The position numbers were made by a program, and so were the translations under genes. Positions 41,802 through 47,591 of a DNA stretch of 64,000 nt are shown here, in pieces (within the stretch, counting starts at the first letter, position 1; each line of letters begins with the position of its first letter). The DNA lies in NCBI GenBank assembly GCA_965202785.1, contig OZ241855.1, forward strand, positions 192,001 to 256,000. Direction: 5' to 3'. Source of the stretch: Thermodesulfobacteriota bacterium. Lineage in GTDB: Bacteria > Desulfobacterota_D > UBA1144 > Nemesobacterales > Nemesobacteraceae. The notes below the pieces were generated by a model. That model saw only the letters and a program-made list of their open reading frames with translations. It had not been told where the DNA came from and did not search any database.

Positions 41802-41968
41802 TTTAACCTCCGAAAATCGATGCGTGGCGGTAATGTTACTCAAACAGCGAAGATACTCAACATGAGGTACGGGATTAGGGGCCGTCGGCCCAGGCTCCTG
41901 TCAGATTCCTGCAGGAAATAAAATCCCGCCACGCCGAAACCGAAGACCTCACCGGCCCGATTACATCA

Positions 41969-42020
41969 TTGACACGGTACTTTCTCATGTGGTAAGCTAA
42001 ATGATAATATTTCTCATTTA
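41969..42020 (+). promoter_or_regulatory. Sigma70 promoter overlapped by a Fur/Zur-type operator
   Basis: TTGACA (41969) - 18 bp - TGn-TAAGCT (41993); palindrome TAAATGATAATATTTCTCATTTA at 41998-42020. Confidence 0.8.
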
Positions 42021-42029
42021 CCTATGCAG

Positions 42030-42314
42030 ATGAGCAGAACATTTTCCTTATCGCTTACAATCGCCTTTCTGGGAGCGCAGATGCTTTCTTTTGCCCATGC
42101 GGCCGAATACGGTTCCTGGGAACACGAGCATGAGGGAGTTTCCTGCGAAATCTGCCTGAGCGCCAAGTATCAGGACTTCTCAAGTCCCGGCGCCGCGAGC
42201 GGGCCCAGTGTTCTCCGCCACGCGGAATACGTCTCGCAGTCACCCACTGGCGCTACCATCGTTCGGGACGATTACGATGAGGGAATTACCCGCGGACCTC
42301 CCCTTTCCTCCTGA
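42030..42314 (+). CDS. DUF2946/CruR-like secreted leader peptide with HEH-CxxC and RGPP, copy 1
   Basis: Signal peptide (AHA|A), HEHEGVSCEIC, 45-aa spacer, ITRGPPLSS*; ATG 42030 is homologous to the copy 2 start. Confidence 0.8.
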   Translation: MSRTFSLSLTIAFLGAQMLSFAHAAEYGSWEHEHEGVSCEICLSAKYQDFSSPGAASGPSVLRHAEYVSQSPTGATIVRDDYDEGITRGPPLSS

Positions 42315-42391
42315 GATGTAGACAGACTTTTTATTCCCCGCGCATACGTGCGGGCAGCGGAATTTTCTTTTAAAACTTTAAGGAGGAAAAA

Positions 42392-43885
42392 ATGAATATA
42401 TTGCGTTTCGCGGTAATAACTGCGTTTTTTGCCGTCTTGCCGTTTTCTCATATCCCCGCTTTCGCCGCTTCTGATCAGGAGATAGAAGCTTTAAAGAAGG
42501 AAATACAGGAAATGAGGTCAGAATATGAGAACCGGATTTTAAAGATGGAGGAAAAACTTGCCGAGATGAAGACTGCGGCAACCGTGGATAAAACGAAAAC
42601 GACTTACTCAAAGAGCAGAGACAGCGCCTACCCCGGCAGAGCCGTTTACAACAGCACCCTTAATCCTTCAATCGGAGCGGTACTGGGCGGAACCTTCGCC
42701 GCATTCTCTTCTGACGAGGGCGAGATTCCGGGGTTTGTCCTGGGACACGAAGGAGAACGGGGAGCGGAAGGAATTTCCCTCGGGGAAACCGAACTCAATT
42801 TCTCTACAAGCGTCGATGATAAATTTTACGGACACATAACCACGGCTCTTGCAGACCATGGAGACGGGGTTGAGATAGAGCTTGAGGAAGCGTACGTGGA
42901 AACCCTTCCAGGTTTCGGGCTTCCAACGGGAGCGACGATAAGGATGGGACGCGCGTTCTGGACTTTTGGATACCTGAACGAGCATCACGCCCACGCTGAC
43001 GATTTCGCCGATCGTTCCCTGCCTTACAGGGTGTACCTCGACAATGGCTTTAATGATACCGGAGTGCAGATTTCATACGTGCTTCCAACAGATTTCTATG
43101 TTGAGGCGGGAGGCGGTATTTTCCGCGGAGACGATTTCCCGTTTGCGGGAGCTGAGGGTAGCGACATAAACTCATTCAGCGCCTTCCTGCGGGTAGGCGG
43201 TGACATAGGAAATAATTCATCCTGGAGAATCGGAGGTTATTTCCTTGACGGAGAGGCAAGCGGTCGCGGCGGCGGACATGGACACGAAGACGAGCATGCC
43301 CATGAAGAAAACGGCCATGATGATGACCACATGGATGAACACATGGATGAACACGATGATGACCACATGGATGAACACGCGGATGAACACGATGATGACC
43401 ACATGGATGAACATGGACATGAGGAGTTCTTCAGCGCCGGCATGTTTACGGGCGACACGAGGCTTTACTCGGTTGATTTTCGCTACGTTTGGGCCCCCAC
43501 CGGAAACATCCGCCAAAAAGAGGTGCTTCTCCAAGGTGAGTATTTCTGGCGTGACGAAGAAGGCTACTACACTCTTGAGGAAGGAGGCGAGGTCCACGAA
43601 GAGCACCTCGACGGAGGAAGCCACGGCTGGTACGCGCAGGGGGTTTTCAAGTTCTCGCCGAAATGGAGAATCGGAGCCCGCTATTCCCAGATATACTCTC
43701 CCGAGGATTCAGGGATAGATCACGATCCCTACGCGGTAGCGGTCATGGGCGACTGGTCAAACAGCGAGTTCTCGCGCTTACGCCTTCAGTACAACTATGA
43801 AAAACTGGGAGAGGACCTGAGCGACAACCAGATCCTGCTCCAGTACATAATGAGCATAGGCGCACACGCCGCGCATAAATACTAA
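42392..43885 (+). CDS. Zinc-regulated outer-membrane beta-barrel/porin-like receptor with a His/Asp-rich loop
   Basis: Signal peptide, coiled coil, NPSIG, ELEEAY, GYLNEHHAHADDF, SEFSRLRLQY, C-terminal GAHAAHKY. Confidence 0.8.
   Translation: MNILRFAVITAFFAVLPFSHIPAFAASDQEIEALKKEIQEMRSEYENRILKMEEKLAEMKTAATVDKTKTTYSKSRDSAYPGRAVYNSTLNPSIGAVLGGTFAAFSSDEGEIPGFVLGHEGERGAEGISLGETELNFSTSVDDKFYGHITTALADHGDGVEIELEEAYVETLPGFGLPTGATIRMGRAFWTFGYLNEHHAHADDFADRSLPYRVYLDNGFNDTGVQISYVLPTDFYVEAGGGIFRGDDFPFAGAEGSDINSFSAFLRVGGDIGNNSSWRIGGYFLDGEASGRGGGHGHEDEHAHEENGHDDDHMDEHMDEHDDDHMDEHADEHDDDHMDEHGHEEFFSAGMFTGDTRLYSVDFRYVWAPTGNIRQKEVLLQGEYFWRDEEGYYTLEEGGEVHEEHLDGGSHGWYAQGVFKFSPKWRIGARYSQIYSPEDSGIDHDPYAVAVMGDWSNSEFSRLRLQYNYEKLGEDLSDNQILLQYIMSIGAHAAHKY
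43316..43414 (+). repeat. In-frame 36-bp tandem repeat (~2.75 units) encoding HDDDHMDEH(M/A)DE
   Basis: Units start at 43316, 43352 and 43388. Confidence 0.9.
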
Positions 43886-43932
43886 GAGCAACCGTAGCGT
43901 GAAACGCTACCTGGTTTTTCTCTCCATCCTCC

Positions 43933-43969
43933 TGCCGGGGCCGCTTTTCGCGGCCCCGGCATATTTTTT
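43933..43969 (+). terminator. Rho-independent terminator
   Basis: 12-bp stem TGCCGGGGCCGC/GCGGCCCCGGCA followed by TATTTTTT. Confidence 0.85.
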
Positions 43970-44021
43970 GGCAACTGCCCCAAGGAATCGGTGGAACTGA
44001 CGGCCCGAAGTACATACATCA

Positions 44022-44073
44022 TTGACACCGTACTTTCTCGTGTGGTAGGCTAAATGATAATATTTCTCATTTA
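44022..44073 (+). promoter_or_regulatory. Sigma70 promoter overlapped by a Fur/Zur-type operator
   Basis: TTGACA (44022) ... TAGGCT (44046); identical palindrome TAAATGATAATATTTCTCATTTA at 44051-44073. Confidence 0.8.
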
Positions 44074-44082
44074 CCCATACAG

Positions 44083-44367
44083 ATGAACAAAACATTTTCC
44101 TTATTGCTTACAATCGCCTTTCTGGGGGCGCAGATGCTTTCCTTTGCCCATGCGGCCGAGTGCGGTTCCCGGGAGCATAAGCATGAGGGCACTGAATGCG
44201 AGATATGCCTGAACGCCAAGTATCAGGACTATACAGATCCCGGCGCCACGAGTGAAGTCCGTGTTCTTCACCGCGCACAGAACGTCCCGCAGCCACTCGC
44301 TGACGTTATCGTCGTTCGGGACACTTGCGAAGCGGGAATTACCCGCGGACCTCCCGTCTCTTCCTGA
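44083..44367 (+). CDS. DUF2946/CruR-like secreted leader peptide with HKH-CxxC and RGPP, copy 2
   Basis: Signal peptide, HKHEGTECEIC, 45-aa spacer, ITRGPPVSS*. Confidence 0.8.
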   Translation: MNKTFSLLLTIAFLGAQMLSFAHAAECGSREHKHEGTECEICLNAKYQDYTDPGATSEVRVLHRAQNVPQPLADVIVVRDTCEAGITRGPPVSS

Positions 44368-44443
44368 GCCGTAAACAGACTTTTTATTCCCCGCGCATAC
44401 GTGCGGGCAGCGGAATTTTCTTTTAAAACTTAAGGAGGAAAAA

Positions 44444-45355
44444 ATGAATATATTGCGTTTCGCGGTAATAACTGCGTTTTTTGCCGTCTTGCCGTTTTCT
44501 CATATCTCCGCTTTCGCCGCTTCTTATCAGAAGGTAAAAGTATTTGCCTGCGAACCGGAATGGGCGGCACTGGCCCAAGAAATCGGCGGTGACAAGGTGG
44601 AAGCGTTTTCAGCCACCTCGGCCACACAGAATCCACACTACATAAGGGCACGCCCAAGCCTGATATCCAAAGTGCGCAAAGCCGATCTGCTGATCTGCTC
44701 GGGCGCAAGTCTTGAGGTAGGCTGGCTTCCGGTTCTGCTTAAGAAGGCAAGTTCTGATCTCCAGCCCGGCTCCCCCGGTTACCTTATGGCTTCAAATCTG
44801 CTCACCATGCTCGAAGTACCGGTTGTGGTCGACCGCAGCATGGGAGATATACATCCGGAAGGCAATCCCCACGTGCACCTGAATCCGTACAACCTGATAA
44901 TTGTAGGCGAAGTGCTTGCCGATCGCCTTTCGGAAATCGACCCTGGGACCGCCTCTTTTTACAAAAACCGATTCCGGGATTTTTCATCACGCATGCAAAA
45001 GGCCATCTCCCGGTGGGAATCCGAGGCCGCCGAGCTTAAAGGAAAGCCGGTGGTGGTTCATCACAAATCGTTTAGTTATCTGATTGACTGGCTCGGAATG
45101 AAAGGAGTGGGGGCGCTTGAACCGAAACCCGGAATTCCCCCCACAGCTTCTCACCTGAAGAATCTGCTGCTGCAGTTAAGAAACAGCCCGGCGGATGTGA
45201 TTATCCGTACCCCTTACGATCCGGGTGACGCGAGTGAATGGTTCTCGGAGAAAACCGGGGCAAGGGCAGTCGTGCTTCCTTACACCGTTGGCGGTGACAG
45301 CCAGAGCGGCGACCTGTTCGCGCTGTTTGACAGGACTATAGCTTTGTTAAAATAG
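44444..45355 (+). CDS. Zn/Mn ABC transporter substrate-binding protein (ZnuA-like)
   Basis: QNPHYI.ARPS, GDIHPEGNPHVHL, HHKSFSYL, EPKPGIPPT.SHL. Confidence 0.92.
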   Translation: MNILRFAVITAFFAVLPFSHISAFAASYQKVKVFACEPEWAALAQEIGGDKVEAFSATSATQNPHYIRARPSLISKVRKADLLICSGASLEVGWLPVLLKKASSDLQPGSPGYLMASNLLTMLEVPVVVDRSMGDIHPEGNPHVHLNPYNLIIVGEVLADRLSEIDPGTASFYKNRFRDFSSRMQKAISRWESEAAELKGKPVVVHHKSFSYLIDWLGMKGVGALEPKPGIPPTASHLKNLLLQLRNSPADVIIRTPYDPGDASEWFSEKTGARAVVLPYTVGGDSQSGDLFALFDRTIALLK

Positions 45356-45359
45356 ACAT

Positions 45360-46124
45360 ATGATGTTGAGTGGTGAACTTCTGGAAATCATCGGGCCGGC
45401 AGTGGCTGCCGGCCTCATGATTGCGCTTACCCACGCTCCCTTGGGCATCGAGGTGCTGCGCCGCGGCATCATCTTTATTGATCTTGCGGTGGCGCAGATT
45501 GCGGGACTCGGGCTTGTGGCCGGCAACATGTTTATCCATGACCCGTCTCCGTGGCTGATCCAGTTAATGGCTCTTGGCTGCGCGGTCGCGGCAGGGCTGT
45601 TTTTCCGCAAGGTGGAAACGGCGATGCCCGAGCGACAGGAAGCGGTCATAGGGTGCACTTTCGTACTTGCCGCATCGCTGGCGCTTCTGCTGCTGGCCGA
45701 TCACCCCCACGGCGGAGAAGAGGTAAAACACCTGCTTTCGGGACAGATGCTGTTTGTGACATGGACAGACGTGGCGAAACACTCGCCCATTTACGCGTTG
45801 ATACTGCTGGCTTGGTTCTTCAGGCCCGAGGTGCGGAACAACGTTGGATTTTACCTGCTCTTCGCCCTTGCCATCACTTCGTCGGTTCAGCTGGTCGGCG
45901 TCTATGTAGTCTTTGCGAGCCTCATACTTCCGGCTCTGGCCGCCGTACGCGTAAGAAAGCCTCATCTTGTCGCATGGCTCTGCGGGGTGGTGGCGCTTCT
46001 GTCAGGCATCGCCTTCGCCGTAGCGTTCGATATGCCTGCCGGACCGATTATTATCCTGTCATATACCGCGACGGCCCTGATCATACGAGGGGTCAGGATG
46101 GCAAACCGGGATCATAAAATTTAA
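45360..46124 (+). CDS. Metal ABC transporter permease (ZnuB/ABC-3-like)
   Basis: HAPLGIEVLRRGIIFIDLAVAQIA, QEAVIG, SVQLVGVYVVFASLILPA. Confidence 0.9.
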   Translation: MMLSGELLEIIGPAVAAGLMIALTHAPLGIEVLRRGIIFIDLAVAQIAGLGLVAGNMFIHDPSPWLIQLMALGCAVAAGLFFRKVETAMPERQEAVIGCTFVLAASLALLLLADHPHGGEEVKHLLSGQMLFVTWTDVAKHSPIYALILLAWFFRPEVRNNVGFYLLFALAITSSVQLVGVYVVFASLILPALAAVRVRKPHLVAWLCGVVALLSGIAFAVAFDMPAGPIIILSYTATALIIRGVRMANRDHKI

Positions 46125-46254
46125 GAAGGGTTTATTGTGCGCGCCCCAGTGAGCAATTTACGAATCAACACAATGCTCTATATCAGGAATGTTTCAATGA
46201 AACAATTATCGTTAAATAAATCCTTTCGACATGAAACGTCAGGAGGTCAGAGAG

Positions 46255-47373
46255 ATGAGACAATTTGATGTTGTTATTGTTGGAGCCGGTCCGGCAGGGA
46301 TAGGGATTGCCGCTATGCTTAAGGATCTGGGTATAAAGCGAATGATTGTTCTTGAGAGAGAAAAAGTCGGCGCGACTTTCGATAAATGGCCGAAGGAAAT
46401 GCAACTCCTAACCCCTTCATTTACAACTAACTTTTATGGTCATCTTGACCTTAATGCGGTTATATCCGGGACCTCGCCAGCATATATGCTTCGAAAGGAA
46501 CACCCTACCGGCAAGGAGTATGCCCGGTATTTAAGAGAGATATCAGAATATTTTGATTTGCCAGTTGTTGAACATACAAATGTAGAGAAGGTGCTTTATT
46601 CTGAAGGCTCTTTTAAGGTTCATATTACTGGAGGAAAGCCGATAGAGTCTCGCTTTTTGATTTGGGCGGGCGGAGAATTTCAGTACCCGAATACAAATCC
46701 TTTTTCAGGTGCTGAGTTGTGTTTGCATAACAGCCGAGTGAAAAGCTGGGAACACGTTAAAGGCGATGAAATTTATATTATCGGCGGTTATGAGAGCGGA
46801 ATTGATGCAGCCATCCATTTGAGTCGACTGGGCAAAAAGGTTCATGTATTAGACCGCGATGCGCGTTGGAGCAAAGAAACAACTGACCCAAGTGAAAACT
46901 TATCGCCTTTTACGTTGGAGAGGTTGAGGCAGGAAATAATTTATAACAGGATTGAGCTTGTTGGTAAATCCATGGTCAGGGAGATAAGGCTGGAGCAGGA
47001 CAAGTATTTGATTTATGTCAGAGGCAAATCATCACCTTATCAAAGCGCCACACCACCCATTTTGGCAACAGGATTTAAAAGCAGCCTGGTCGTCATTAAA
47101 GAGTTGTTTGATTGGGAGAAGAATAAAGACTACTGTTTGCTGAATGAGCAGGATGAATCAACCAAAACTTCTGGATTGTTTCTCGTTGGTCCACAAGTTC
47201 GCCATGATGATCTTATTTTCTGTTTTATTTATAAATATCGGCAGAGGTTTGGTGTTGTCGCTAATGCAATTGGAGAGCGATTGGGCATGGATACAACGCT
47301 GCTTGAGACATATCGCAATGAAGGCCTCTACCTGGATGATTTGAGCTGCTGCGGAGAGGAGTGTGTTTGCTGA
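46255..47373 (+). CDS. NAD(P)/FAD-dependent oxidoreductase with Cys-rich C-terminus
   Basis: IVGAGPAG, IIGGYESG, ATGF, FCFIYKYRQRF, ending DLSCCGEECVC; AGGAGG SD before ATG 46255; AT-richer than flanks. Confidence 0.88.
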   Translation: MRQFDVVIVGAGPAGIGIAAMLKDLGIKRMIVLEREKVGATFDKWPKEMQLLTPSFTTNFYGHLDLNAVISGTSPAYMLRKEHPTGKEYARYLREISEYFDLPVVEHTNVEKVLYSEGSFKVHITGGKPIESRFLIWAGGEFQYPNTNPFSGAELCLHNSRVKSWEHVKGDEIYIIGGYESGIDAAIHLSRLGKKVHVLDRDARWSKETTDPSENLSPFTLERLRQEIIYNRIELVGKSMVREIRLEQDKYLIYVRGKSSPYQSATPPILATGFKSSLVVIKELFDWEKNKDYCLLNEQDESTKTSGLFLVGPQVRHDDLIFCFIYKYRQRFGVVANAIGERLGMDTTLLETYRNEGLYLDDLSCCGEECVC

Positions 47374-47591
47374 TGCAAGAAGAACTAGTTCAGAAAGAAA
47401 TTAAGACCAATATAAGCATACAATGGTTATGCCAATTGATCGCCAGTTTGTCCTGGTTCACTTCCGTTATTGTTTACGGATCATTTGAACTGGGTGATTG
47501 CCTGCAATTGTTAGCTGCATCCGCGTGGACCGTATCTAATATTGTGAATTATTTTACTAACAAAAATCATGTCATAAGCCAAAGCATGTGA
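47373..47591 (+). CDS. Small hypothetical membrane protein
   Basis: TGATG coupling to the upstream gene; two repeats of QL.A.S.W in hydrophobic helices. Confidence 0.55.
   Translation: MQEELVQKEIKTNISIQWLCQLIASLSWFTSVIVYGSFELGDCLQLLAASAWTVSNIVNYFTNKNHVISQSM

Follow-up and report, generated by a model that had tools for sequence, protein, structure and literature searches.

Organization of the locus

The window analyzed here is a stretch of 64,000 nucleotides (nt) of contig OZ241855.1 from a Thermodesulfobacteriota bacterium (GCA_965202785.1). Between positions 41953 and 46124 it carries a metal-uptake operon for an outer-membrane porin, a solute-binding protein (SBP) and a permease, in which the porin and SBP genes are each preceded by the same module of promoter, palindromic operator and a short upstream open reading frame (uORF) encoding a candidate ribosome-arrest leader peptide. 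All features lie on the plus strand, with the exception of the two operators, for which no strand is assigned. Near relatives of the porin carry the label Ca. Dadabacteria or Thermodesulfobacteriota.

Module copy 1 (41953..42480), the source of a duplication, stretches from the promoter through the operator, leader and intergenic stem to the first ~30 porin codons. The predicted promoter (41969..41998), with a -35 hexamer at 41969-41974 and an extended -10 element at 41990-41998, is followed by a 23-bp Fur-family palindrome (41998..42020), which overlaps the -10 end and the predicted start site. Leader uORF 1 (42030..42314) encodes 94 amino acids (aa) with an N-terminal hydrophobic helix and the residues Gln17, His23, His32, His34 and Cys39 (Cys42). 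Its RGPP codons occupy 42291..42302, with a predicted P-site proline codon at 42297-42299, an assignment carried over from the toeprint reported for CruR (PMC12992588). The anti-Shine-Dalgarno segment (anti-SD; 42304..42312) consists of tail codons plus the first stop-codon base and is perfectly complementary to the porin-gene Shine-Dalgarno sequence (SD; 42381..42389). An inner GC hairpin (42337..42354) closes the long stem between them, and a U tract starts 8 nt after it. The His-rich porin gene (42392..43885) follows.

Module copy 2 (44001..44532) is inserted in the 5' end of the SBP gene and repeats this order with a predicted promoter (44022..44051), a Fur-family palindrome (44051..44073) and leader uORF 2 (44083..44367), likewise of 94 aa and 65% identical to leader 1. 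Its RGPP codons (44344-44355) and anti-SD (44359-44365) span 44344..44365, while the inner hairpin (44390-44407), of the same sequence as in copy 1, and the SBP-gene SD (44433-44439) span 44390..44439; anti-SD 2 pairs with this SD with one G-U. The gaps from leader to next gene are 77 and 76 nt in copies 1 and 2, respectively. A ZnuA-family SBP (44444..45355) and a ZnuB/ABC-3 family permease (45360..46124) complete the operon.

Both leaders carry a CxxC at residues 39-42, a 45-residue spacer and RGPP at 88-91, three residues before the stop. Among 80 segments ending in R[AGS]PP in the six-frame translation of the genome, these two are the only ones with a CxxC 40-50 residues upstream. The leaders, anti-SDs, hairpins and palindromes described in a previous sequence-only reading of the window were all present in both copies, each where it had been placed.

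The leader peptide

Ratios of nonsynonymous to synonymous substitutions (dN/dS), calculated pairwise over 37 leader copies of the genus from pairs that are not independent, were 0.25 in the helix, 0.24 in the His/Cys region, 0.05 in GITRGPP and 0.63 in the spacer, and the spacer was 45 residues long in 31 of 33 genus modules. Judged from these patterns, the leader is a peptide under selection. A structure model places a hydrophobic helix at residues 3-27, corresponding to an N-terminal membrane segment or export signal, and a small hairpin and helix around the ligands, with the remainder, spacer included, unstructured.

A profile search returned 214 representatives at 50% clustering, distributed over several phyla, and 137 of the 150 listed end in R[AGS]PP. 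Leaders with this ending occurred at 65 of 80 porin loci, and three more end in HAPP, RDPP or RGSP, variants named in the literature as arrest or arrest-like motifs, for a total of 68. Over 138 aligned homologs, Gln17 was conserved in 93%, His23 in 98%, His32 in 86%, His34 in 93% and Cys39 in 100%, and the distance from the cysteine to the arginine of the motif was 48-50 residues in 122. The CxxC emphasized in the sequence-only reading is present in both leaders (C39-C42), but its second cysteine is retained in only 50 of 137 motif-bearing homologs; CxxC was rejected as the defining site of the family, the conserved ligand set being His23/His32/His34/Cys39. His23, where the helix ends, is nearly invariant, which suggests that it belongs to the metal site; cleavage of a signal peptide would then remove it. 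Searches of Pfam and NCBIfam assigned no family to the leaders or the porin.

On a Sulfurovum plasmid, the same porin-SBP-permease set is preceded by a leader with His residues and a CxxC (L114:2312-2668) that ends in HAPP and has a far longer spacer; the tail of this leader also appears complementary to the porin SD.

Pairing of the leader tail with the downstream Shine-Dalgarno sequence

Pairing was assessed by permutation over 38 loci from outside the Dadabacteria, with start positions set by hand in five. Leader tails paired with their own SD at -11.9 kcal/mol and with the SD of other loci at -8.7 kcal/mol, a difference found in 0 of 20,000 permutations and holding within GC terciles. At four loci (L086, L100, L101 and L102) the pairing is retained with wholly different letters. 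TCC is the last serine codon in 24 of 25 and 20 of 27 leaders, compared to a background of 0.18-0.19 in porin genes. The first proline codon of RGPP is CCT in all 26 Dadabacteria leaders and in 10 of 38 elsewhere, which gives the Dadabacteria leaders a second SD-complementary stretch. By these comparisons the tail/SD pairing is conserved, and compensatory change in it is probable, though not firmly separated from shared ancestry.

With the first RGPP proline in the P site, the anti-SD lies at +8 to +16 from that codon, under the ribosome footprint. With this footprint masked, opening the start region was predicted to cost 5.9 kcal/mol in both copies, down from 10.5 kcal/mol in copy 1 and 7.6 kcal/mol in copy 2. 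Across 66 loci, the cost fell by at least 3 kcal/mol in 45 with the footprint mask and in none with a mask ending upstream.

The inner hairpin varies among relatives, with compensation by eye. Hairpin and U tract were considered as an intrinsic terminator in the gap between leader and gene, and this was rejected, with no terminator called. Because the U tract is 8 nt distant and has been deleted in two relatives (L024 and L025), we read the inner hairpin as a scaffold rather than a terminator.

Promoter, operator and repressor

The -35 hexamers at 41969 and 44022, each with an extended -10 element 18 nt on, are conserved in most copies of the genus; a consensus promoter scan did not list the predicted leader promoter. 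Three metatranscriptome assemblies carry sequence of relatives over parts of the locus, in which level, strand and ends are unreadable, and they were not used as evidence.

A matrix built from 14 boxes of the genus found three strong sites in 1.64 Mb, with scores of 30.9, 30.9 and 26.6, the next being 12.5. Two of these sites lie in the modules and the third, at G000:C1:802055, in the promoter of a Fur-family gene (802087-802533) that is followed by a MerC-domain gene. The same box occurs upstream of the repressor in all 30 ortholog loci scored, and box and regulator were lost together in two genomes (G004 and G016). As in a Zur regulon, a palindromic operator overlaps the promoter and is shared with the cognate Fur-family gene. 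A Fur-family operator with a cognate, autoregulated repressor is supported by these sites, and the earlier description of the palindrome as a Fur/Zur box stands as far as the family is concerned, but profiles do not type the repressor as Zur. Profiles and PDB matches were tried as a means of typing it as Fur or Zur and gave no separation. The repressor lacks the His and Glu carried by aligned Fur proteins at two N-terminal positions, which we take to be iron ligands. In seven genomes of other Dadabacteria families, repressor, box, a ZIP or CbiMQO transporter and porin form one cluster, which in six includes the leader. This clustering ties the repressor to the porin operon and is also compatible with nickel or cobalt.

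Several further observations were made on the box and its regulator. The repressor gene with its own box and the MerC-domain membrane protein (G000:C1:802055-802930; L001) are duplicated in some relatives. CbiM-like S components under the same box (L160-L163) are extended at the N terminus, so that the usual motif comes after two added residues and a His; this could change which metal is selected. One locus (L045) has lost the leader upstream of the porin and carries promoter and box in three tandem copies. A weak box-like site (G000:C1:641139; score 12.3) precedes a ferritin-like open reading frame and may instead be the site of a PerR-like regulator.

Duplication of the module

Segments 41953-42480 and 44001-44532 align over their full length of ~530 bp, from the promoter through the first 30 porin codons. 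The insertion point was the 5' end of the SBP gene, which now begins with the porin signal peptide, and the old SBP signal peptide persists as a dead remnant (43899..43990) with an intact counterpart in single-module relatives. From the alignment, the two modules are the product of one duplication event, so they count as one piece of evidence and not as two; an independent origin was rejected on the end-to-end alignment and the SBP remnant. Through the duplication, the SBP and permease genes acquired a promoter and leader separate from those of the porin.

Of 36 genomes in the genus, 17 carry both copies in full, and these fall within one part of a quick porin tree. One relative (L041) has lost the second leader again, and in two the second promoter is broken, its -35/-10 spacing destroyed. 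With the duplication limited to one lineage and copies lost or damaged in relatives, the arrangement of one leader per transcription unit, which the sequence-only reading had taken as characteristic of the system, is derived and unstable; the ancestral state is a single leader for the whole operon.

Within the SBP remnant, a 12-bp hairpin with a U tract (43933..43969; folding z -6.18) probably terminates transcription between the two units of this lineage. The U tract beside it is found in the window and its three closest relatives and is absent from most other two-module loci. The hairpin is older than this change: the probable terminator arose from the former coding sequence when a deletion in the subclade of the window moved the U tract beside it.

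Target operon and metal

The porin model (497 aa, mean predicted local distance difference test score 66) has 17 strands called, no plug and a long His/Asp loop. Its best structural match is OprP (Z 24.6, root-mean-square deviation 3.7, 309 aligned), followed by classical porins (Z 19-22) and FecA (Z 11.8). The family is annotated elsewhere as "zinc-regulated TonB-dependent receptor" (omr), and the sequence-only reading had likewise named the gene a receptor. A TonB receptor, a 22-strand barrel with a plug, was rejected on the plug-less model and the higher scores of OprP and porins, so that by its model the protein is a porin. Its His/Asp-rich loop is encoded by 12-nt repeats (43270-43425) that differ in length between relatives and strains.

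The SBP and permease belong to the families expected of an ABC uptake system, as had been proposed, but the operon has no ATPase gene after the permease or elsewhere, and no Walker-A cluster was detected among genes common to at least three of 80 loci. This operon family thus has an SBP-permease pair without an ATPase; nine loci in other Dadabacteria families have a more distant porin together with a full, ATPase-containing set. The SBP has a His-type third ligand, with His where PsaA has Glu, and its best PDB sequence matches are Mn-binding proteins.

Vibrio campbellii has the same three genes at 35, 41 and 37% identity; there, the porin gene is immediately preceded by Zur-type boxes, and a leader is absent. 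Such a cluster is named for V. campbellii in PMC9817125, and that of V. parahaemolyticus is reported there to be induced 283- to 1034-fold by zinc limitation. The equivalence of the V. parahaemolyticus cluster follows the naming in that paper, as direct sequence comparison was made with V. campbellii only. Outside the Dadabacteria, a Zur-type box precedes the leader in 6 of 42 leader loci; the box consensus agrees with the Caulobacter boxes in PMC4176598. Since the orthologous Vibrio operon is Zur-regulated and Zur boxes occur in Alphaproteobacteria, zinc is likely to be the metal here.

Two neighboring features were recorded. The permease is followed by a lower-GC flavin adenine dinucleotide-dependent oxidoreductase (Pyr_redox_3) ending in a Cys cluster and by a small membrane open reading frame (46231-47591), a pair that occurs at 11 of 80 loci and has no preceding box. 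A gene for a DUF5666-repeat lipoprotein lies between trpS and the module in L036:1024-2346 and at five other loci.

Separability of leader and repressor

Leader and repressor occur together in 30 of the 36 genus genomes, while four have the repressor only, two the leader only and none neither. The two leader-only genomes are 98% complete, have no box genome-wide and keep only PerR-like Fur-family genes; as sister taxa, they represent one event. Among 50 loci from outside the Dadabacteria, all eight leaderless loci lie in genomes with a Zur-model match of at least 80 bits, and 26 of the 42 leader-bearing loci in genomes without a match of 70 bits, by thresholds of our own choice, over genomes of unknown completeness and kin that are not independent, and with one truncated match counted as absent. 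From this distribution, the two control tiers are separable.

Proposed mechanism and alternatives

Our preferred reading, to which we give a probability of roughly 55%, is a zinc-type uptake operon under two separable controls, a Zur-like repressor and a CruR/CutF-like arrest leader that gates the SD. Of its parts, a cis-acting arrest leader gating the SD of the next gene is highly probable, and release of the stall by metal, rather than its induction, nearly as probable. The anatomy, selection, pairing geometry and co-occurrence described above are shown by the sequences, and stalling itself would follow by analogy with CruR, CutF and SecM-type systems.

In the first tier, a Zur-like Fur-family repressor, encoded elsewhere, would bind the palindrome and block the promoter when cytoplasmic metal is sufficient. 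In the second, a ribosome stalled at RGPP would cover the anti-SD and leave the SD open, and the uptake gene would be translated. The N-terminal helix of the leader would engage the membrane, and His23/His32/His34/Cys39 would bind metal, most likely zinc, at a fixed distance from the stall. Folding around the metal would then pull the chain free, the ribosome would terminate, the stem would re-form and uptake would be turned off. Under this arrangement, uptake would occur only when repressor and leader both see little metal. Given the lengths of the ribosomal tunnel and the translocon, on which this ruler geometry rests, the ~51 residues from Cys39 to the P site and the 67 from His23 would suit a site forming at the outer face of the membrane. 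CruR is reported to work without its signal peptide (PMC9426467); its arrest was demonstrated in vitro, and RGPP ranks among the strongest arrest motifs (PMC12992588). According to the literature, a RAPP-class motif alone is insufficient for arrest.

A number of results weigh against this reading. No obvious SD precedes the leader itself. The sequence-only reading had proposed a search of both uORFs against DUF2946 (PF11162), and this gave no match on either leader or in the genome at E <= 10; six of the 90 homologs scanned from the 150 listed matched at E 2.6e-4 to 4.6e-3, all below cut-off, and by these scores the leader is divergently related to DUF2946 without formally belonging to it. In silico, copy 2 makes a weak switch. 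The proposed folding comparison did yield a lower opening cost under the footprint, but folding from tail to start was no better than in shuffled sequences (z -1.43 and -0.94; 15 and 37 of 200 shuffles as good). In the same way, the proposed covariation held in that pairing with the own SD beats permutations, but the comparison with nearest kin gives a weak result (own SD better in 21 and worse in 16 of 38, p 0.035; 5 vs 4 over 10 disjoint pairs), and position-wise covariation is significant at one of 12 positions with 27 of 38 loci anchored, the other 11 including the most divergent pairings. In many loci the tail also pairs almost equally with the SBP SD of its own operon (porin SD stronger in 23 of 34), one second copy (L007) lacks the anti-SD, and by eye the leaders found in other families of Dadabacteria do not show this tail pairing. 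The repressor falls below every NCBIfam cut-off, Fur models outscore the Zur model on it, and its orthologs head CbiMQO-type (Co/Ni) genes in four related genomes.

These last points would fit the same arrest/SD switch responding to nickel, cobalt, copper or manganese, or a leader and repressor that sense different metals. The CbiM, CbiQ and energy-coupling factor ATPase genes headed by those orthologs, the MerC-domain gene here, the copper sensing of both characterized DUF2946 leaders, the untyped repressor and the Mn-binding matches of the SBP speak for it, and we consider it unlikely in view of the induction of the orthologous Vibrio operon by zinc starvation, the Zur-type boxes of alphaproteobacterial homologs, the ZIP genes that occupy the same slot in three genomes, the absence of iron or copper genes at the three box sites and the His that replaces the Glu of PsaA. 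With respect to what releases the stall, the leader could instead monitor secretion or membrane insertion, as SecM does, or metal could prolong the stall with the polarity of CutF; neither would shut off uptake at high metal. Both downstream genes encode Sec substrates, SecM-type leaders share the logic of an SD stem, and CutF opens such a stem by copper-induced stalling. The His/Cys set, however, is nearly invariant and sits at a constant distance from the stall, no sec or yidC gene lies downstream, and uptake induced by metal would work against the repressor at the shared promoter, which makes this a fairly remote alternative.

Slightly less probable again is a stall that acts mainly on transcription, by Rho-dependent or intrinsic termination in the intergenic region, with the SD pairing secondary. 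CruR acts through Rho, a conserved GC hairpin and also a U tract are present in the intergenic region, and untranslated mRNA would invite Rho in any case, while the spacing and loss of the U tract, the lack of a called terminator and the nucleotide-level selection on the tail/SD pairing argue for action on the SD. Finally, the leader could be nothing more than a metal-binding protein that is secreted or anchored in the membrane, in which case the pairing would arise incidentally where purine-rich SDs face pyrimidine-rich proline and serine codons. The unremarkable folding z-scores and weak nearest-kin test would be expected from this, as would the complementarity of Pro-Pro codons themselves to the SD core. 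It is very improbable, since the spacer is near-neutral in sequence yet fixed in length and predicted to be unstructured, RGPP is retained although no other tetrapeptide is avoided as strongly in 10 bacterial groups, the leader always lies directly upstream of the porin, and TCC is favored.

Comparison with known systems and implications

The leader resembles CruR of Bordetella pertussis (Bp2923, DUF2946/PF11162), described in PMC9426467 as the first gene of a metal-uptake operon with an export signal, a CxxC, 45 residues (rule 45 +/- 2) and a RAPP-like motif three residues before the end; like CruR, it is predicted to be ON when stalled. It differs from CruR in its RGPP, in a His3-Cys site with the second cysteine in about a third of homologs, in the lack of a DUF2946 score and in its target, which is porin-ZnuA-ZnuB here and a copper TonB transporter there. 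The locus also has a short intergenic region with the anti-SD in the leader tail, in place of the Rho termination of CruR, and an extra Fur-family operator.

With CutF of Rhodobacter capsulatus (PMC9973294; bioRxiv 10.1101/2025.02.05.636593) the leader shares its nature as a small exported His/Cys peptide with a C-terminal proline motif, and the stalling that opens a stem hiding the next SD, which here is predicted; such opening was seen in silico, weakly for copy 2. By the rules given in PMC9973294 (<150 aa, PP in the last 15 residues, a signal, and a same-strand gene within 1000 nt), both leaders class as "CutF-like", with 94 aa, PP at 90-91, the N-terminal signal and gaps of 77 and 76 nt. 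Unlike the leader, CutF is reported to stall with copper present, to control a detoxifying oxidase and to use a PPP-type motif that needs elongation factor P; the target here is uptake and the predicted polarity is the reverse. SecM and ApdA/ApdP (PMC10987492) share the RAPP-class motif near the C terminus, the N-terminal localization signal and the SD-sequestering stem. This class precedes secA, secDF or yidC and senses translocation force, and none described in that source has this His/Cys set; here, the genes downstream are porin, SBP and permease.

On the zinc side, the Vibrio omr-znuAII-znuBII cluster (PMC9817125) has the same three genes without an ATPase under Zur-type control, and the V. 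campbellii locus is leaderless. In Caulobacter, CC2720-czrCBA-zntA (PMC4176598) is a Zur-controlled zinc operon headed by a DUF2946 gene and thereby a prior case of both elements; it differs in being an efflux operon activated by Zur, and the available text of PMC4176598 does not describe a function for the leader. RAPP uORFs before this receptor family are already rows, undiscussed, in the 2025 source data of PMC12992588. The statement of the sequence-only reading that no description of such a system was known is qualified by these two precedents and agrees otherwise with the literature covered, from which subscription papers were mostly absent: neither an arrest leader linked to zinc or Zur nor work on zinc in this taxon was found there. 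Most likely, the locus belongs to the CruR/CutF class of leaders as a branch linked to zinc, in which the SD is gated in the manner of SecM; to this class it adds a duplication history, a His3-Cys ligand set and leader-only, repressor-only and double-control states.

The duplication is a clear record of one operon splitting into two separately controlled units, and the natural leader-only, repressor-only and double-control lineages permit comparison of the two tiers. The locus also offers a compact system for studying how a RAPP-class stall is released or prolonged when metal binds. More speculatively, and in our view doubtful, the leader could be a zinc-sensing arrest peptide that reads metal at the membrane face via a nascent-chain His3-Cys site and is able to replace Zur altogether. 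If true, many genomes with this operon would depend on the leader as the sole control of zinc uptake, and others would use the repressor inside and the leader outside in series. The metal-sensing arrest leaders characterized so far number two, both for copper, and a zinc-linked branch with different ligands would demonstrate that metal sensing by a nascent chain is a device of general use that can be retuned.

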